Positions 1 through 8,600 are shown, counted from the first letter of the stretch. The stretch is DNA of 64,000 nucleotides from an uncultured Ignavibacteria bacterium (GCA_964627935.1 CAZVLB010000004.1:153842-217841); one strand, 5' to 3'. Made by a program: numbers and translations. The notes: generated by a model not told the origin, from the sequence alone.

Positions 1-61
1 CGGGCTTTTGCGATAGCGTTCAAGGCGCAGTTGATCGGGGATTGTGATCGTACGGGTGATA

Positions 62-1150
62 CTAATCTTCTGCATATTCCAGCAACTCCCGGCACTTTGC
101 GGAGGCATATTCAAAATCGACTCCGCCGCCGATTTCATAAGTTCTTACATCCGAAAGCATCTCAAGATATGCTGCCGGAGAAAGCTCCGATTTGTCCAGA
201 CATTCGCCATCTTCATAGAATAATCCGGGCGATTTCATAACCGCATCCAGAAGATCGAGCCGTGCTTTCAGATCGACTTGCCTGATCACCGACGGCCCGG
301 CATTCAGCTGCCAGTTCAATATCACAAAACAGTCGATTCTGCTCTGCAGGCTATAACGTTCCGGACCAAACAGCTTATCGATCAATGCATCGTACTTTTG
401 CTCAAGCTCCCAGAGCTCCTTTTGCGGCAATTCCCGGGCCTGATCAAGCTCATCCTCGGGCATTATTTCATGCAGCTTGCGGTTGTTGATTATCGTGCCC
501 GGATTGATACGCGGGTGTTTCGCCACGCCGTACATCATTGTCGAGGCATGTTCTTGTCTGATCAGCAGACGGTCATTGCTTACAAATGTCAGGCCGTCGG
601 TTACCAGCCTGATCGCCAGAGTCGATTTGCCCATACCGGAAAAGCCGGCCAGGCCGAGGCCGTGACGGCCGTCATTGACGCCCGCGGCATGACACAGCAG
701 GCATCCGCGGTTAAGCATCCACTGGATATAACGGTTATTTATAAAATTCACCACCTGGTTGATATTGTTTTCGCAGGGCCCAATGCCCACATTGGTTCCC
801 TCGCCAAACATAAATGTCATTCCTGTCAGACGCTTGCGCACAATCCTGCCGTTTTGCAGGTTGACAAATTCTTCCTTGATTTTGGTCTTACCCGGATCGG
901 GAGATTTGATTGTGAAGTCAAAATCGAAAGCGGGAGGATCGGCCTGATAAGCGTATATCTCGATGTCGAAATTTTCGGTATCCTGCTTGAAAATTCGGAA
1001 ATACTGATTCAGCTCATCTTCAACTTTGGACGAATTTGTTTTGACCCTGATACGGCAATCACCGAATTTGAGACCGATTTGATATCGGGCTTCAAGCGAG
1101 GAGGCGACATCTCGTTTGACATCATCGAGGCTGACCTGATAATCGCTCAC
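62..1150 (-). CDS. HprK-related serine kinase-like P-loop protein (GAK/HprK-rel-B-like)
   Basis: 362-aa ORF with Walker A 'GFSGMGKSTLA' followed by 'VSNDRLLI', resembling the HPr kinase C-terminal catalytic domain. N-terminal region unrelated to HprK. Adjacent to an ATP-grasp gene with a 4-bp start/stop overlap. Confidence 0.55.
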   Translation of the reverse strand: MSDYQVSLDDVKRDVASSLEARYQIGLKFGDCRIRVKTNSSKVEDELNQYFRIFKQDTENFDIEIYAYQADPPAFDFDFTIKSPDPGKTKIKEEFVNLQNGRIVRKRLTGMTFMFGEGTNVGIGPCENNINQVVNFINNRYIQWMLNRGCLLCHAAGVNDGRHGLGLAGFSGMGKSTLAIRLVTDGLTFVSNDRLLIRQEHASTMMYGVAKHPRINPGTIINNRKLHEIMPEDELDQARELPQKELWELEQKYDALIDKLFGPERYSLQSRIDCFVILNWQLNAGPSVIRQVDLKARLDLLDAVMKSPGLFYEDGECLDKSELSPAAYLEMLSDVRTYEIGGGVDFEYASAKCRELLEYAED

Positions 1151-2040
1151 CTGTCAAGCGCCTCCAGCACATAATTGCAATACAGATCGGCGGCTTCGAT
1201 ATTATTGGCCTCCAGAAGGCCCCTGAATCCACCAAAGGCCGATACTTCGAAAATCATCGGGCCATCGGGAGTCTCGGCTAAATCGACACAGGTGAAATCC
1301 AGGCCGAACAATTGCTGGGCCTTGTGAGCCAATTCGATTATCTCAGGGTCAGGCTCATAGGACTGGTATTTGCCGCCAGATTGGGTGGTTGTATTCCAGG
1401 CATCATCGGCGATGACACGCGCATAGGTTGCCAGGTATTTACCGCCCAGGAATACTATTCCAAGATCTTTGCCGGGTAGTTCAATTTTTTTCTGTATATA
1501 CATCAGTGGATTGCCCTCATCACGAAATTCTCTGATTGAATCCCTGAGGCCGTTTTCGGCCCGCAGGAGCTTCATGCCTCGCGCTTTGGATGTATACAGG
1601 GGTTTCAGAACGGCTTCGCCGAAACGTTCAATGACCAAAACCGCCTCATCGACATTTTCGGTAATCACAGTGGGGGGCATGGGAATACCGCCCAGACGAA
1701 GAGTCGCTGTGCAACTAAGCCGATCGATTGCGCGGTAAATCTTTTCCGGGTCGGAGAAAATGCGCAGGCCCCGGGCCTTTAAAAAACGCAGTATTTCCAG
1801 TCGATCGAGCACATAGGGCGAGTATTTGGAACTGATTTTCTTGACTATCAGGCCATCCAACGCGGACAAATCGAAACCATTCTTACGCACGCATCCGGAA
1901 TGCAGATCGAGTATGATCTGGTTCATGTCGATCAGGATCCGTTCTCCAGTCATTTTTTTGACCGCATCAGCAAGGCGTTCCGAGGACCATCCGCCGGATA
2001 CTCCCACAACGCCGATTTTGTATTTCTTCCCTGAATTCAT
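1147..2040 (-). CDS. ATP-grasp enzyme (RimK/GAK-system ATP-grasp-like)
   Basis: 297-aa ORF with an N-terminal Rossmann-like 'KIGVVGVSGGWSSERL'. Central and C-terminal ATP-grasp fold signatures are present (…KPLYTSKARGMKLL…, …FEVSAFGGFRGL…). Co-directional with and overlapping the upstream kinase-like gene. Confidence 0.6.
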   Translation of the reverse strand: MNSGKKYKIGVVGVSGGWSSERLADAVKKMTGERILIDMNQIILDLHSGCVRKNGFDLSALDGLIVKKISSKYSPYVLDRLEILRFLKARGLRIFSDPEKIYRAIDRLSCTATLRLGGIPMPPTVITENVDEAVLVIERFGEAVLKPLYTSKARGMKLLRAENGLRDSIREFRDEGNPLMYIQKKIELPGKDLGIVFLGGKYLATYARVIADDAWNTTTQSGGKYQSYEPDPEIIELAHKAQQLFGLDFTCVDLAETPDGPMIFEVSAFGGFRGLLEANNIEAADLYCNYVLEALDR

Positions 2041-2057
2041 AGTAGTCTATTCCCGGA

Positions 2058-3698
2058 TTAGTTGACCAAGGTTTGCTTGGGAAGAGTGAATTCCTCCCAC
2101 GGTTTGCCCTCGTGGGCGAGCATTTTTTCGATCAGGAAGACCGCCCGCAGATACATCGACTTGGCAAATTCTTCCTTCAACTCGAAACGAGTGGAACTTG
2201 TGAAGGACCTGATCAGGCCCAATGTCAGGCGGGCCTCAAATGTGCTGTCATTTTTCGATTGCGCGAAATCATTGGCGAAATTGAAAAAGTTGTGAATGGC
2301 CCAGTCCAGCTGATTGCGCACCCGTGGATCGCCTATGGGTATACGGAAGGCCGAGACTATAAAGACCGAGACATCCTGAACATAGTCCTGCTCACGGGAG
2401 CGGTGCAGGTCGATGAAGTGGATTCTTCTCTCGCCACGGTTGTATATGATGTTGTCGATATTGAAATCGCCATGGATCAGCACTGTAAATGGCGCAAACA
2501 GGCTGTCGTCAATTTTGGAGATACCTTCCAGAAGATCGTTGTATGATGGTGTTTCCAGTGATCCGATTTGCTTGTCCTGGAATGTGTAATTGGGATGCAC
2601 CCGATGGACCTCTTCGATTCTTTCCAGGAGTTGATCGGAAAGCCCGGCATTGACCCGTTGATCTTTCTCGGTACGGCTCCAGATATCCAGCAGAGTATTT
2701 TTTACCAGCCCGAGCGCATCCTCCATTGCTTTACGATCATCCCCCAGGAGCAGTTCCTCGAGGGTTGCGCCGGCCAGGTATTCCAGAAGCAGAGAACCGT
2801 TCTGGCCATTCTCCTGGAATCCAAAAACACGCGGTGTCAGCCCGGGCGAGATGCGCTGCCATCTTTCGATATTCTCCTTTTCGCTCCTGAGCTTGCTGAC
2901 TCGCCCTTCTTTGAAGATGGCCGAGGTTGACAGGCTGCCGCTTTTTTTATTGCGAATTCTGGCTATGCGGCATCCGGACCTGGTTTCCCAGATCGACTCA
3001 AAAGCGAAATCGGAGATAGGCGCATCGATATCCATGCGCTGCAATGTCTGCTTGAGGGCCTGATATTGATGAATCTTCAGTTTTTCACCCACCGCGGCCG
3101 AGATTATAGATTCGCCTATATTCTGAAGGCAGTCACCGACACGTTCCAGGTAGCGGAAAATAAAAGTCGTGGTCAGAAGTTCGCCGATATTTTTGCCTTC
3201 CTGCAGTTGTCCCAGAATTTTTGTGAAGACATCGCGATAGATCTCATCCAGGCGGTATTCCGCCCGGCAGATTTCCACCGCCATATCCAGGTCGCGGGAA
3301 AATGTCGCCTCATAGATTTTATTCAGGGCATCTTCTATTTCATTGAAGCAGATTTCTGTCGGATAGCGGTTGATGAATGCTTTATCCTGATAATGCCCTG
3401 TCTGACTGACTATATTTACGAAGTAGTCGGCAATTCGCTCGAGATTGGAGGTGATATTTATAACCGCCTTCATCAGGTCAACCGTTTCCTTGTCCTCCTG
3501 GCTGACATGATAAATCTGCGAAAAGCACTTATTTTCGATTACCCCCTTTAAATTATCTATATAATCGTCGCGGGAATTAATCTTTTCGATAGATACCGCC
3601 CCGGCCTGGTTGATCAGTTTGCGGGTGCTCTGAAGCTGCGAGCGGACCTCGATAACCAGGAATCTGAGATTTTCGTCGATTTCCTTCCGAAAAGGCAA
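2058..3698 (-). CDS. PhoU-domain / aminoglycoside-phosphotransferase-like kinase fusion protein
   Basis: 546 aa. The N-terminal half has two PhoU-like helices ('LERIADYFVNIV', 'LERVGDCLQNIGE'). The C-terminal half has a protein-kinase/APH-type catalytic loop 'LIHGDFNIDNIIY' and a downstream 'IDLHRS'. Confidence 0.5.
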   Translation of the reverse strand: MPFRKEIDENLRFLVIEVRSQLQSTRKLINQAGAVSIEKINSRDDYIDNLKGVIENKCFSQIYHVSQEDKETVDLMKAVINITSNLERIADYFVNIVSQTGHYQDKAFINRYPTEICFNEIEDALNKIYEATFSRDLDMAVEICRAEYRLDEIYRDVFTKILGQLQEGKNIGELLTTTFIFRYLERVGDCLQNIGESIISAAVGEKLKIHQYQALKQTLQRMDIDAPISDFAFESIWETRSGCRIARIRNKKSGSLSTSAIFKEGRVSKLRSEKENIERWQRISPGLTPRVFGFQENGQNGSLLLEYLAGATLEELLLGDDRKAMEDALGLVKNTLLDIWSRTEKDQRVNAGLSDQLLERIEEVHRVHPNYTFQDKQIGSLETPSYNDLLEGISKIDDSLFAPFTVLIHGDFNIDNIIYNRGERRIHFIDLHRSREQDYVQDVSVFIVSAFRIPIGDPRVRNQLDWAIHNFFNFANDFAQSKNDSTFEARLTLGLIRSFTSSTRFELKEEFAKSMYLRAVFLIEKMLAHEGKPWEEFTLPKQTLVN

Positions 3699-3701
3699 GA
3701 A

Positions 3702-3989
3702 CTACTCACTCCTCTTTGGCTCGATTATGAGCGGGCGGGACTCTTCCTCGGAAAGGTCAGGTTTCTCTTTCCAGCTGATTTTGACACTCAGCTTGATTTT
3801 GCCATCTTTTCGGCGGGCCTTGAGATCAAGCTTGAGCATACCCCAGGGTTCCAGGACGATATCATTGCCGTTATTGCCGAGAACCAGATGCCCGTTCTGG
3901 AAACCCTCGCTGATGGCATTGATATACCTTACGATTGTTTCGCAATCCTGAAGAGACTCATGCCTGAAATCATCAATTTCTTCTGCCAT
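3702..3989 (-). CDS. small amphi-Trp-like domain protein
   Basis: 95-aa acidic/basic ORF. It has an alternating K/L/D beta-strand pattern and Trp residues near the C-terminal end ('EPWGMLKLDLKARRKDGKIKLSVKISWKEK'). It lies 3 bp downstream of the PhoU-kinase gene on the same strand. Confidence 0.4.
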   Translation of the reverse strand: MAEEIDDFRHESLQDCETIVRYINAISEGFQNGHLVLGNNGNDIVLEPWGMLKLDLKARRKDGKIKLSVKISWKEKPDLSEEESRPLIIEPKRSE

Positions 3990-4019
3990 TGTGTAGCACC
4001 TCCGGTGCCGCGCTTAAGA

Positions 4020-5180
4020 TTATTGCAATCTCTCTTTGTATTCGTTTATAACCGTCCGGCGGTCAATATCTCCCAGAATCAGACTTTTGCGAATTGCCGG
4101 ATCATCCCAGGGCGGCTGATAGCCGATCTGGCGGCTGGCCTTGTCAAAATCCTGGAAACGCGGTTCCTTGACCTTCTCGCCCATATGACAATCATCGCCC
4201 ATGAAAACCAGTATTCGTCTTTTATGGCCGCTCTGGCTGTTTTTGCGATGCACCACATCAATCAGGAACTTGGTATACTCCTGTGACTGCGGATTCCAGA
4301 CCTCATAGCCGTCAACATCATAATCCGCCAGTAGAATCGGCCAGAACTGTTCGGGATGCGGGATTACTATACCTCCGCCCAGTGAACGAATTTCCTCGAT
4401 CATCTCCGGCGTCTCGTAAAAATGTTTGAGCGAAAAATTGGCCTTGACGATCTTCTTTATAGCTTTCAGGAATATCTGCGCCCGGTTTATGAAATGTTCC
4501 TCGAAATGATCCCGCATCAGGTCGAGATAGTACTTGAGCAGCTTGTTTCTGATCATCTCCGGCGGTGTCTCTGAAAAATTCATCTCCAGGAGCTTTTTGA
4601 CCTTGGCGGTGCAGGCCCGGATAAAGCTGACCATTTCTGAATCCGCGCCGGTTTTTGCGGCCGCTCGGCTGAGCCTGTCCTCATATTTAATCTCGAGTAT
4701 CGTATCTATAAATTCATACAGCTGACCAGTGCGGTATTTGAAAGTATGCGAAAGCATATTCTTGAATACCGTGGCATCGGTCACCTTGTCCTCCTCGAAA
4801 TGCACCAGCAGCTGTACCTTGCGGTTGAACTCCCTTGAATAGCAATCGACCTCAACACCGGTATAGCCCTTGTGAGTCATGAGCACATTATGCTGTGTTG
4901 GGATCAGGAGCTCCAGGTCACTATTGGGGAACATCCTTTCCACACGCCTGGAGATTACCGGCATGGGTATGAATTCCGGGTGCCAGTGTACCGCCAGCAC
5001 GCTGTCCTGACGATAATGAACCTCCTCCGGGTTTTCGAGCATATGACGCATCTCATCGCTCAACTCAACCGTGACGAGCTTCCGGTATAGTTCCTGGTCA
5101 TACTCGGTAATTTCGGGAGCCAGCAAATCTGACGACAATCCTTCCGAGACCGATACTTTCTGCAAATTTCCTGATTTCAT
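4020..5180 (-). CDS. conserved hypothetical protein with DDCH motif (XXXCH-domain-like)
   Basis: 386-aa ORF with no recognisable catalytic domain apart from the C-terminal 'VFMGDDCHMGEK'. Same strand and cluster as the kinase/ATP-grasp genes. Confidence 0.4.
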   Translation of the reverse strand: MKSGNLQKVSVSEGLSSDLLAPEITEYDQELYRKLVTVELSDEMRHMLENPEEVHYRQDSVLAVHWHPEFIPMPVISRRVERMFPNSDLELLIPTQHNVLMTHKGYTGVEVDCYSREFNRKVQLLVHFEEDKVTDATVFKNMLSHTFKYRTGQLYEFIDTILEIKYEDRLSRAAAKTGADSEMVSFIRACTAKVKKLLEMNFSETPPEMIRNKLLKYYLDLMRDHFEEHFINRAQIFLKAIKKIVKANFSLKHFYETPEMIEEIRSLGGGIVIPHPEQFWPILLADYDVDGYEVWNPQSQEYTKFLIDVVHRKNSQSGHKRRILVFMGDDCHMGEKVKEPRFQDFDKASRQIGYQPPWDDPAIRKSLILGDIDRRTVINEYKERLQ

Positions 5181-5604
5181 AGGTTATGATCCACAAGGCA
5201 AATGACGCCTCAAAAATAACTTAATGGCCCGATTTTGTCAACATTAGCCCATGTTAGGATTTTGTTAGCGCCAGTTTGCCCGCCTTTTAAAGGTTTCCGG
5301 TTTTCGTTGGGTAAAACAATCCCAATCAGGCATGGTGCCCGAATTGCTTTAATTATCGGAATTTAACGGCTAATTTTGACAATTCCACTCTTTTATTGGG
5401 CGTTAAAAACTTCTATCCAGAGATCCTGCGGCTAATGAACATTGCGATTTAATCCGATCATATATATGTTAAATAAGAGTTAAAATATTTTCGCAACAAT
5501 GTCCGTACAACATTAGACAAGCAAAAAAGGGGTGCAAAAAAGCGGCTGTAACGGTTGCGGAGGATAGATTTATTAAAAGTCTAAGGCTTCACATAAATTG
5601 GATA

Positions 5605-8600
5605 TTGATGTTTCTGCTTACGGTGTTCCTGTCTCTTTGCATAAATCTTGCGGGCCAGATACCCGGAGAAGGGAAGCCGCTTAAAAATGTCCTTGTGATT
5701 CAGTCCTACAGCCACGGCTTTTCATGGACTGTCAATATAGATGAAGGAATCAGAGAGGGACTTCTCAGTGCCCCGGATTTCAATTTCGAAATCGATCATG
5801 AATTTTTGAATTCAAACCGCAGCCTCGATCCGCAGCACCTTGATCTTCTAAAAGATATTATGTCGCTCCGTTATTCGGCCGACCCTCCGGACTTACTGAT
5901 TATCTGCGATGATGTGGCCCTGCAGTTTATCCTCAATCACAGGCCATCTATTTTTGACAGCACCCCAATGGTATTTTGCGGGATCAATGACTATGATCCG
6001 CAGGTGTTGGAAAGCGGACTGAAAATAACCGGCGTTCTGCAAACCGAGGACCTGGCCGGGACCCTCGAACTGGCGCTTGGAATTCACAGAAATGTAAGCA
6101 AAGTTGCTGTGATTTCGGACCAGACAATGACCGGGCGGGCCCTGGAAAGGACCGCTCGTGAGCAGTTTGCTCAATTCAGTGACAGGCTTGAATTTGATTA
6201 TCTCTCTGATGTGGACTGGAACACCCTGCTGGGATATCTATCTGATCTGGATCAGAACAGCATCGTATTTTACCTGCTGTTTACCCGTGATGCCAATGGA
6301 CGTTCATTTTTATTTCAGAATGCGGTCCCGGCTATGTCCGGGATCTCGCCTGTGCCGGTCTACAGTCACCTGGGGAGCCTTGTCGGTATGGGAGTTGTGG
6401 GCGGATACATGGTCAGCGGGGAAGACCAGGGCAGGGCCGCAGCTGATATGGCTTTGAAGATATTTCGGGGAGAGGCAGCGGATCAGATTCGGGTACAGCC
6501 CGGCACCGTACATAGATACCTTTTCGATTATGATCAGATACAGAGATTTGATATTGAACAATTGACCCTGCCGGCCACGGCACAAATTGAGAACCGTCCG
6601 GAATCCTTTATAAGCAAAAACCGCTGGCCGTTGCTTCTGGCCGTTATGGTCATAATACTTCTGTTGCTCATCGTCCTGATACTTTCCAATACAATTATCA
6701 GCCGAAGAAAAGCCGACCGGGCCCTGCGCGAAAGTGAGGAAAGGCTGAATCTAAGCCTGGATGCTGCCAGTGATGGCGTCTGGGACTGGGATATCAAGAC
6801 TGATCATGTATACAGGAGCCCATCATGGTACGATATTCTCGGTTATGACCGGGTCAGGATCGATAATAATTTTGAAGTTCTGATGGACCTGATTCACGCG
6901 GATGACAAGGCCGGCATGCAGGCAGAGCTTAAAAGGCATTTTGCCGGCGAGACAGAAATCTTCCGGCGCGAATACAGATTGCGAAAATCTTCAGGAGAAT
7001 ATATCTGGATTCTCGGGCGGGGCAAAGTTGTCAGGCGCGATAATGATGGCAAGCCACTTCGTATGGTAGGTACCATAGCTGATATTACCTATCATAAAAA
7101 AATCGAACAGGAACTTCTCGACAGCGAGGAAACTTACCGCAACCTGTTCCATAATGCCCAGGTAGGGTTGTTCCGTACTCGAATATCGGATGGCAAGATC
7201 CTGGAATGCAATGATCAGCTGGCACGCATGTTCGGCTTTGATGGCCGGCAGGAAGCCATACAAAAATATATGACCAGCGGCAATTATATCGACCCGGACG
7301 CACGCAAGATGATGCTGGATATCCTTTCTAAATATGGAGAGGTGAAGAATTTTGAGGCGGAATTCCGTACTAAAGATGGCAGCACAGTGTGGATGCGCTA
7401 TTCTGCAAAAATATATGCTTCCAAAGGCTGGATCGAGGGGGTGGCCGAGGATATAACCGATCAGAAAAAAATTGAACAGAAGCTTAAGAAAAGCGAAAAA
7501 CGTTTCAAAGACCTAGCCAACCTGCTGCCCCAGACGATTTTTGAAATCGACGCTGAAGGGAAATTCACTTTTGTTAACAGTTCAGGCCTGAAGTTCAGCG
7601 GTTATGATATCAAGGACATAAAACAAGGGGTAACGATTTTTGATGTCCTGAAGGTTGATGATATCGAGCGTGTCCGCAAAAATTTCATGGCCAGTATGAA
7701 GGGCCAACCATCCAGCAACAGCGAGTACAGGCTCCAGAAAAAAGACGGTAGCATAGCAATCGTATCCATTTATACCAGCCCGATTCTTCAGGATGGCAAA
7801 CCTGTCGGCCTGCGCGGTATCGTGATCGACCTGACCGAGAAAAAGCGCCTGCAGGAATTTGCCGCCCGGGCTCAACGGCTGGAGACGGCAGGACGAATTG
7901 CCGGGCAGGTGGCGCATGATTTCAATAATCTGCTGGGACCCCTGGTAGCTTATCCCGATCTTATTATTGATGATCTGCCCCGTGATAACCCGGCCATAAA
8001 ATTCCTGAATGACATGAAAAAAGCGGCCGAACAGATATCCGAAATAAACCAGGAATTGCTGACACTGGGACGCAGAGGGCATTATAATCAGGAACCTGTC
8101 AACCTCAATGAAGTCGTCGAGCAGGTTTTAAGCAGAATCAGCCCATGCCCGGACTCACTGGTTATCGAAAAGGACCTCACTCCCGATTTGATGAATATCA
8201 TGGGCGGTTCCTCGCAGATTTTCAGATCGATATATAATCTGGTGGGCAATGCCCGCGATGCCATGCAGGACATTGGTACATTGACAATCAAAACCCGAAA
8301 CTACTATGTGGATGAAGAGACATACAGGTATGGCCGGATCCCGCAGGGCGAATATGTCAAGCTTAGCATCTCCGATACGGGAGCAGGTATCGACCCGGAT
8401 CATCTGAGCAGAATCTTTGATCCGTTCTTTACAACCAAGAAAGCGGGACGGAAAAAAGGCACCGGCCTGGGACTTAGCGTGGTGCATGCCGTCATGGAGG
8501 ATCACAACGGTTATATAGATTGTGAAAGCAAACCCGGCGAGGGTACCAGCATGTACCTGTATTTTCCGATTTCTCGAGATACTATCAGAAGTGAAGATAT

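Follow-up and report, generated by a model that had tools for sequence, protein, structure and literature searches.

What does a tightly packed run of five minus-strand genes encode, at the start of a 64,000-nucleotide stretch of DNA from an uncultured Ignavibacteria bacterium (GCA_964627935.1, CAZVLB010000004.1:153842-217841; the whole stretch is called the window here)? A first-pass annotation, made from the sequence alone, had read in it an HPr-kinase-like protein, an ATP-grasp ligase, a fusion of a PhoU domain with a kinase, an amphi-Trp protein and a protein with a DDCH motif, and had likened the set to the computationally defined GAK system. Our analysis shows with near certainty that the minus strand of window positions 1-5241 carries the first five-and-a-bit genes of a GAK-system operon of seven genes, arranged in the way most often seen. 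The locus is a regular representative of a system that is known computationally and is functionally uncharacterised. We name its genes A to G in their 5' to 3' order (Table 1).

All five co-directional open reading frames (ORFs) between positions 62 and 5180 were found where the first-pass annotation had placed them. Genes A and B are 30 nt apart, B and C 3 nt, and C and D 17 nt, and 4 nt are shared between D and E. The motifs that had been quoted are also present, namely GFSGMGKST in E, HGDFNIDN in C and DDCH at residues 329-332 of A. These ORFs are real genes and not chance reading frames, since the family E-values reach 2e-141, 3e-134 and 5e-17, homologues of A are numerous and the gene order recurs in other genomes.

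We assign the locus to the GAK system because five of its products exceed curated cut-offs and because its synteny is collinear across genomes. The NCBIfam cut-offs are 200 bits for TIGR04355, 300 for TIGR04356, 340 for TIGR04357, 31 for TIGR04354 and 40 for TIGR04358. E scores 470.9 bits against the HprK-related kinase B model TIGR04355 (E 2.4e-141, model positions 5-351 of 351), D scores 446.5 bits over its full length against the GAK ATP-grasp model TIGR04356 (E 3.4e-134), F scores 554.3 bits against the GAK CofD-like model TIGR04357, and the amphi-Trp model TIGR04354 is matched by both B (62.0 bits) and G (61.8 bits). The match proposed from the sequence therefore stands, with family scores above the curated thresholds and conserved co-occurrence of the genes in other genomes.

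The CofD-like partner that had been predicted to lie just outside the window is there as well, and its first 25 codons still fall inside the window. Sequence beyond the edge was taken from Logan contigs that carry the same five products in the same order, E having been looked up by its exact sequence; one of them, L001, is identical to the window across the shared region. On this contig F and G follow E, and the operon unit is therefore seven genes, A-B-C-D-E-F-G. A terminator-like hairpin lies 3' of G, beyond the window edge, and a scan for terminator-like sites saw none on the minus strand inside 62-5180.

We then assessed how far this arrangement is conserved. The A family is present in 473 of 185,579 species genomes, and the best match comes from Zixibacteria (73% identity). 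Of 80 reference-genome loci, 61 have A-B-C-D-E in collinear order on a single strand, with at least eight phyla represented; most of the remaining 19 of these best 80 loci are cut by contig ends, and F and/or G usually follow E. Collinear hosts are found in Zixibacteria, Ignavibacteria, Planctomycetota, Thermodesulfobacteriota, Nitrospinota, Atribacteria, Spirochaetia, Gemmatimonadota and SAR324, and the hosts also include Phycisphaerae, Desulfovibrionaceae, Desulfarculaceae and Desulfobacteraceae. Over 160 loci, the adjacent pairs D-E (130), C-D (116), B-C (109), A-B (107) and E-F (77) were counted.

An independent sampling, starting from E in metagenome loci and counting wherever the sequence was sufficient, gave the same picture: D is adjacent in 37/37 loci, C in 33/37 and A in 30/37, with A located elsewhere in two more, and F adjoins E in 32 of the 46 loci with enough downstream sequence. 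By these counts A and C, for which no family model exists, are near-core. The PhoU-kinase fusion, which had been noted as not being a described member, is no peculiarity of this locus: it stands beside the D-E pair in 33 of the 37 independently sampled loci and occurs even in the divergent Rhodobacterales variant described below.

On the other hand, two expected members are not borne out. The first-pass annotation had equated A with the XXXCH-domain protein of the GAK system. We reject this assignment, as A has no match to TIGR04358 even at E<=10, the Cys of its DDCH motif is not conserved and a true XXXCH protein is found elsewhere; tblastn detected no copy of the latter anywhere in the window. 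In other loci it is a recurrent ORF of about 188 residues directly upstream of A, ending in '...AHCHSRYK', of which one member (L077:9389-9955) scores 122 bits on TIGR04358. This gene, H, adjoins A in 29 loci, compared to 107 loci with adjacent A-B, and the XXXCH protein is thus optional in GAK loci; it stands directly upstream of A in about one quarter of them. Its N-terminal half is amphi-Trp-like and its C-terminal domain ends in A-H-C-H; it has no obvious signal peptide, and a heme attachment-like role for its single Cys is only a guess. The GNAT partner that had been expected in the vicinity did not appear either. ORF calls show no GNAT gene next to the cluster within the window, and none recurs near 160 related loci, either in the blastp clusters of flanking ORFs or in the Pfam families that recur most among 148 immediately flanking genes (25 families, with two or more members each). 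The acronym GAK may stand for Grasp / Amphi-Trp / Kinase instead.

Variants of the operon indicate how its parts may be grouped. Some Planctomycetota carry A-B-C without D-E nearby, and elsewhere D-E occurs without A-B-C, with Prx, Pta and AckA between E and F, and F 4 kb away. Based on these A-B-C-only and D-E-only loci, we suggest two separable sub-modules, (H)-A-B-C and D-E-(F)-(G), each combining a kinase with an amphi-Trp protein. Atribacteria present a further variant, A-C-D-E-G, which lacks B. Split architectures were seen in L014, L015, L044 and L055 (Planctomycetota) and in L139, L146 and L161 (metagenome), and A alone or A-B with a PhoU-only C also occur. A Spirochaetia metagenome-assembled genome has tandem duplicates of both small proteins, A-B-B-C-D-E-F-G-G (L040, 568-7874; the same contig is L115 in the metagenome set).

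The surroundings of the operon are far less constant. Sensor kinases form the commonest flank cluster (16/80 loci); they are generic and their position is not conserved. Among the 148 flanking genes we counted PIN-PhoH (7), CBS (9), GGDEF (7), EAL (6), the inositol-monophosphatase/CysQ family (4), MgtE (3) and PHO4 (2). There is a faint phosphate/nucleotide theme among these unconserved neighbours, which may be due to chance, each signal being present in less than 7% of loci.

Protein A, labelled 'hypothetical protein' in public sources, required a different approach, as searches by sequence returned nothing: no match was obtained in Pfam or NCBIfam even at E<=10, PF02811 included, and the family profile matched nothing in the PDB. 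The DDCH motif had been described as its sole conserved feature. The motif is present, and the region has the family consensus GDDTH, with G328, D329, D330 and H332 invariant and the Cys variable. It is, however, far from being the sole one. We found 1578 homologues (54-68% identity among the best 120), and when 42 homologues are aligned, 70 columns do not vary and mean column identity across phyla is 63%. The invariant residues include a set that resembles the metal-binding motifs of PHP proteins: H65-W-H67, H97, E110, H127, H275, E293 and D330-x-H332.

The identity of A was traced by structure comparison and by an exhaustive profile search with hhalign. An AlphaFold model built on the alignment (pLDDT 90.9, pTM 0.86) retrieved 3e0f, 3o0f, 9etk and 2yb1 as the top-ranked structures in Foldseek, the last being Cv1693, solved with Mn, AMP and phosphate. 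Searched against 1.84 billion representatives, the profile of A delineates a tight, isolated family of 106 clusters at E<=1e-3, with one outlier, P0241, at E 3.3e-5. This outlier is a bona fide PF02811 protein (55.9 bits, cut-off 26.4), and hhalign aligns the A family to it over 218 columns with a probability of 96.8% and an E-value of 2.8e-10. The alignment pairs TQH97N with TDHN, GVE110 with GIE, PH275P with AHP, YE293V with IEV and D330-C-H332 with D-F-H, so that H97, E110, H275, D330 and H332 of A fall on PHP metal ligands. H65-x-H67 comes after predicted strand 1, the position that it has in PHP proteins, though the aligned region does not reach it, and the third ligand of motif I is uncertain (possibly E69). 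The canonical histidine of IHLL aligns to the invariant Q123 of A, H127 being located four residues later, and the EVYH histidine of the PHP subfamily is the invariant N296 in A. A helical insertion at residues ~130-256 matches that of the YciV/TrpH branch. Taken together, these results make A a predicted PHP-fold (distorted TIM-barrel) phosphoesterase of the YciV/TrpH/RNase AM/Cv1693 branch. The YciV/TrpH branch also includes a 3',5'-bisphosphonucleotide phosphatase. One characterised member of it is a 5'-to-3' exoribonuclease/diribonuclease (PMC7261194, PMC11528712).

The operon encodes two kinases, C and E. C contains PhoU and APH domains above the Pfam cut-offs (82.7 bits for PhoU, cut-off 23.5; 34.7 bits for APH PF01636, cut-off 23.2), scores 78.7 bits against the PhoU equivalog TIGR02135, below its cut-off of 130.25, and reaches none of the APH(3') resistance models of NCBIfam; it is therefore neither PhoU itself nor an aminoglycoside kinase. 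Its PhoU part matches the PhoU structures 1t72 and 1xwm. In 18 diverse orthologues the full ePK/APH catalytic set K263, E273, H409-G-D411, N416 and D430 is invariant, and so are both E-x-x-x-D motifs of the PhoU repeats. E has as its only detectable relatives HPr kinase/phosphorylase (HprK/P), HprK-related kinase A and ScmC. Its family profile matches the HPr kinase/phosphorylase structures 2qmh and 1jb1 at E 2e-5, over a region that spans the catalytic His, the P-loop and the Asp. Against the HprK/P model TIGR00679 it scores only 22.2 bits (cut-off 240), with an alignment limited to ~50 residues of the P-loop region, and against HprK-related kinase A 29 bits (cut-off 200); E is therefore a relative of HprK/P and not HprK/P. 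Judging from their residues, C, with its full catalytic set, E, which keeps the His, the P-loop and the Asp, and A, with most PHP ligand positions invariant, look active.

Ligase D belongs to the RimK/MptN family of alpha-L-glutamate ligases. After TIGR04356, its next-best NCBIfam matches are MptN (151 bits), the RimK family (110 bits) and LysX (90 bits), all below their cut-offs, and CofF is also matched. F falls into the Pfam CofD superfamily, its only NCBIfam matches being TIGR04357 and the YvcK subfamily TIGR01826 (102.9 bits, cut-off 196); no match to authentic CofD (TIGR01819-type) was obtained, and its solved relatives are all UPF0052/YvcK proteins. Members of this superfamily bind nucleotide-diphospho ligands (PMC7525490, PMC10128056).

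The remaining two products are small and non-enzymatic, and the PDB holds no structural relative of amphi-Trp proteins. Across 73 loci, B-type proteins carry an N-terminal motif F-x-[HYF]-E-S-L-Q-D, in which the Ser is at least 90% conserved and which lies in a lower-confidence region ahead of helix 1; they also keep a ...K-L-x-x-K-x-S-W-K-E signature and a 'P-L-x-I' tail. G-type proteins lack the Ser motif and show instead '...S-W...L-x-I-S-x-x-E-P', followed by an acidic Pro-rich tail. We considered a ligation site at the C-terminus of B or G, in the style of LysW or S6, and rejected it, as the C-termini of both types are variable. Apparent fusions of amphi-Trp proteins with kinases were rejected too: a stop codon separates B and C in L038 and L046, and the E-G read-through in L018 passes via a junk-like linker. 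As a lead only, one amphi-Trp protein, DITHS69_2464, is among the 20 most abundant proteins in the proteome of Dissulfuribacter thermophilus (PMC13490349).

A variant from Rhodobacterales bears on the role of A. On PGAP-annotated megaplasmids of Tritonibacter mobilis, Pseudooceanicola algae and Qingshengfaniella alkalisoli, the gene for HprK-related kinase B lies beside a histidine-phosphatase gene. We examined two of these loci, from the cultured aerobes Q. alkalisoli (L166, NZ_CP042262.1) and T. mobilis F1926 (L167, NZ_CP015232.1). Both have the order phosphotransferase, GAK ATP-grasp, HprK-related kinase B, histidine-phosphatase-family protein (His_Phos_1), Metallophos and amphi-Trp. The Qingshengfaniella locus adds a NUDIX gene and a divergent GAK CofD-like gene, which is not adjacent in Tritonibacter; in Tritonibacter, a KAS-III/ACP/acyl-CoA-dehydrogenase gene set comes after the locus. 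The phosphotransferase aligns with C at hhalign E 1e-91 and is its PhoU-APH orthologue over the full length, and the single amphi-Trp gene is B-type and keeps F-x-H-[EN]-S-L-Q-D. Neither of the two loci has a PHP gene. With this gene absent and other phosphoesterases present, the phosphoesterase role is conserved and the protein exchanged, that is, non-orthologous replacement. This supports the assignment of A and makes phosphoester hydrolysis integral to the GAK system.

What, then, might the operon do? The first-pass annotation had guessed at a peptide/protein-modification or signalling cassette, which is plausible. Our own preferred reading, which we hold tentatively and would stop short of calling probable, is a protein-directed, phosphate-gated modification cycle that acts on the operon's own amphi-Trp proteins, and possibly also on F; these substrates we infer. 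The two kinases C and E would be the writers. The PhoU repeats of C would couple its APH/ePK-type kinase to the phosphate status, and E, given the proteins and peptides that its characterised relatives phosphorylate on Ser, may be the second writer. The RimK/MptN-type ligase D would add glutamate, and the YvcK/CofD-like F would bind or transfer a nucleotide-diphospho-linked group. The phosphoesterase, A here and other enzymes in Rhodobacterales, would serve as eraser, or would remove a nucleotide by-product. Ser12, in the flexible N-terminal motif of B, is the best candidate acceptor.

This reading is suggested by several observations. To our knowledge, the characterised HprK relatives all phosphorylate Ser on proteins or peptides, and RimK and LysX are protein ligases, which add amino acids onto small proteins. 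No variant examined in detail is without a non-enzymatic amphi-Trp gene, and the conserved Ser in the flexible motif of B is kept in the Rhodobacterales variant. YvcK/GlmR proteins, finally, are kinase-regulated partner-switchers: they are targets of Ser/Thr kinases and switch partners by UDP-GlcNAc (PMC7525490, PMC13046274).

Other findings speak against a protein-directed cycle. The Atribacteria-type operon A-C-D-E-G has no B, and Ser12 of B is therefore not a universal acceptor. The variable C-termini of B and G disfavour ligation in the manner of RimK or LysX, and a systematic in-frame count over adjacent pairs gave no convincing fusion of an amphi-Trp gene with a kinase gene (B-C 0/109, E-G 1/15, E-F 1/77). 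The nearest structural relatives of A act on nucleotides (pAp, short RNA) and not on phosphoproteins, the characterised relative to which D is nearest in score is MptN, a cofactor ligase, and small molecules are the usual substrates of APH-type kinases; these three points favour a small-molecule pathway instead.

In such a pathway, which we consider possible though on the unlikely side, the enzymes would build or recycle a phosphodiester-linked, glutamylated metabolite, like the side chain of F420 or methanopterin. The kinases would provide phosphorylated precursors, the CofD-like enzyme would use a nucleotide-diphospho donor to make the phosphodiester, and the addition of alpha-glutamate would fall to the ATP-grasp enzyme. 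Clearance of nucleotide by-products would be the task of the PHP enzyme, or of the NUDIX/metallophosphoesterase in the variant, and the amphi-Trp proteins would not be substrates but act as chaperones, scaffolds or regulators. The kinship of D with MptN and CofF, the placement of F in a superfamily of nucleotide-diphospho binders, the nucleotide phosphoesterases closest to A, Cv1693 with its bound Mn, AMP and phosphate among them, and the NUDIX hydrolase of Qingshengfaniella all fit this scheme. It sits poorly with HprK-family enzymes of known substrate, which act on proteins or peptides, and it leaves unexplained why one to three conserved amphi-Trp genes are kept in the operon in all variants examined. 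Moreover, F is nearer to YvcK than to true CofD, and a CofC-type nucleotidyltransferase, needed for the donor, is not conserved in the flanks.

The two lines of evidence could also be combined, in a proposal that we regard as doubtful. The amphi-Trp proteins would then be dedicated acceptors or carriers for an undescribed covalent modification, a phosphodiester-linked and possibly glutamylated group on the conserved Ser. Enzymes borrowed from cofactor side-chain assembly, the CofD/YvcK-like transferase and the MptN/CofF-like glutamate ligase, would install the group on Ser12 of the B-type motif. Priming of the site would fall to the HprK-type kinase and the PhoU-gated kinase, and its resetting to phosphoesterases that can stand in for one another: PHP in this locus, and histidine phosphatase, metallophosphoesterase and NUDIX in Rhodobacterales. 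If true, GAK would be a new system for post-translational modification or for a protein-borne prosthetic group, of a kind with LysW or CitD-type carriers.

It seems to us improbable that the operon is instead a checkpoint or regulator with no dedicated product, an elaborated switch of the YvcK/GlmR type. F would there sense a nucleotide sugar, the kinases and the phosphatase would set its phosphorylation by phosphate or energy status (through PhoU and the HprK-type kinase/phosphorylase), with the amphi-Trp proteins as adaptors that switch partners. This would suit the intact PhoU module of C, the solved relatives of F, which are UPF0052/YvcK proteins throughout, and the regulation of GlmR by phosphorylation and UDP-GlcNAc-dependent partner choice (PMC7525490, PMC13046274, PMC6171935). 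The PIN-PhoH, inositol-monophosphatase-family and PHO4 genes in the flanks point the same way, but each of these neighbour signals is found in fewer than 7% of loci. F, on which the switch would turn, is the least constant enzyme, as the sampling from E shows, and is missing from many Phycisphaerae loci, and the ATP-grasp ligase, the most constant partner of E, is left without a role.

Finally, an anti-phage defence or other mobile accessory system, which the patchy spread across distant phyla, the unconserved flanks and the Rhodobacterales megaplasmids might suggest, is very improbable: none of the seven proteins matched a PADLOC model, no copies were found in phage genomes or viral contigs, integrases, transposases and other defence genes are not recurrent in the flanks, the Rhodobacterales plasmids are non-mobilizable, and the unusually high sequence conservation, seen in A, and the rigid gene order are unlike fast-evolving defence loci.

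The positions of the operon features and of the neighbouring genes are collected in Table 1. No Rfam family matched window positions 1-6000, the leader upstream of A included, at E<=1. A riboswitch or leader RNA upstream of A was considered and rejected on this basis, the short leader hairpin being unremarkable as well (z -0.98). The histidine kinase gene and the GAK operon are divergently transcribed, with 425 nt of AT-rich intergenic sequence between them. The serine hydrolase gene is convergent with the kinase gene, with a 13-nt overlap at the 3' end of the latter. On the Logan contig, the operon hairpin is followed by an unrelated secreted-protein gene, the product of which has a 'GGTCWAFGA' motif resembling the catalytic-Cys motif of papain-family (C1) peptidases.

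Table 1 Features of the GAK-system operon and of its neighbourhood, in window positions unless a Logan contig is named.
Feature	Position	Strand	Remarks
Candidate sigma-70-like promoter (TTGACA, 17-nt spacer, TATTTT)	5213-5241	minus	~33 nt upstream of gene A; consensus scan, 10/12 positions; pattern match only
Gene A, 386 aa, predicted cryptic PHP-fold metal-dependent phosphoesterase	4020-5180	minus	YciV/TrpH/RNase AM/Cv1693 branch; without Pfam or NCBIfam model
Gene B, 95 aa, amphi-Trp protein, B-type	3702-3989	minus	TIGR04354; motif F-x-H-E-S12-L-Q-D, invariant W73
Gene C, 546 aa, PhoU-APH fusion	2058-3698	minus	Two PhoU repeats, ~5-205; APH/ePK-like kinase domain, ~230-546
Gene D, 297 aa, GAK-system ATP-grasp enzyme, RimK/MptN alpha-L-glutamate-ligase family	1147-2040	minus	TIGR04356
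Gene E, 362 aa, HprK-related kinase B	62-1150	minus	TIGR04355; start overlaps D stop by 4 nt
Gene F, 5' part (first 25 codons), GAK-system CofD-like (YvcK-like)	1-75	minus	tblastn, 100% identity over 25 residues
Gene F, 397 aa, full length	Logan contig L001:11076-12269		TIGR04357; overlaps E by 14 nt
Gene G, 104 aa, second amphi-Trp protein	Logan contig L001:12338-12652		TIGR04354; after F
Hybrid sensor histidine kinase/response regulator, 1130 aa	5605-8997	plus	Periplasmic-type N-terminal domain, TM segment, several PAS, HisKA/HATPase, receiver
Beta-lactamase-family (PF00144) serine hydrolase, 594 aa	8985-10769	minus	Signal-like N-terminus
Secreted-protein gene	Logan contig L001:12893-13168		Cut by contig end

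The wider relevance of these results lies in the system to which the locus belongs. The operon of the GAK system, with seven or more genes, is rigidly conserved. It is known from hundreds of species, which represent nine phyla or more and include sulfate reducers in culture as well as marine Rhodobacterales, and in it four phosphate-handling enzymes and a ligase are arranged around small proteins. Searches for experimental literature on 'GAK system' or 'HprK-related kinase' found none, the literature matches to 'XXXCH' concern cytochrome c, and DVU155x locus tags gave no match. Our analysis revises the membership of the system: its core includes a hidden PHP phosphoesterase and a kinase gated by PhoU, the XXXCH protein is an optional member, and there is no GNAT partner. 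It further reveals a phosphoesterase role that is kept through non-orthologous replacement, proposes a candidate acceptor residue and points to hosts that are in culture and open to genetics, namely Tritonibacter mobilis F1926, Qingshengfaniella alkalisoli, Maridesulfovibrio sp. FT414 and Desulfatibacillum alkenivorans DSM 16219. Should the amphi-Trp proteins turn out to be modified, the system would offer a new chemistry for modifying proteins, one that comes with its own phosphate sensor.

Compared with known systems, each enzyme of the operon resembles a characterised family and departs from it. The YciV/TrpH (RNase AM) and Cv1693-type PHP proteins (9etk, 3o0f, 2yb1) share only 13-16% identity with A, which is ~100 residues longer and sits in a kinase/ligase operon, whereas YciV/TrpH and Cv1693 are stand-alone enzymes of RNA or pAp. 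With HprK/P and the lasso-peptide-associated HprK-related kinase A, E shares the P-loop and the flanking catalytic His and Asp, but its N- and C-terminal regions differ, and in place of an HPr or PqqD-like partner the small partners here are amphi-Trp proteins. D shares the fold and the family signature of the alpha-L-glutamate-ligase-type enzymes RimK, LysX, MptN and CofF over its full length while scoring below the cut-off of each family; LysW and S6 have a conserved acidic C-terminal acceptor, which the amphi-Trp proteins lack. F is in the same superfamily as YvcK/GlmR (UPF0052) and CofD, with its nearest solved structures in the YvcK family. YvcK, which is kinase-regulated, pairs with the P-loop NTPase gene yvcJ (PMC7525490, PMC13046274), whereas F pairs with the HprK-type kinase gene that it overlaps. 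Set against the GAK system as defined, by computation only, in TIGR04354-TIGR04358, the locus is without the XXXCH-domain protein and has in A and C two near-universal members for which there is no family model and which PGAP labels 'hypothetical protein' and 'phosphotransferase'; it carries the same signature proteins above their cut-offs, in the gene order of most loci.

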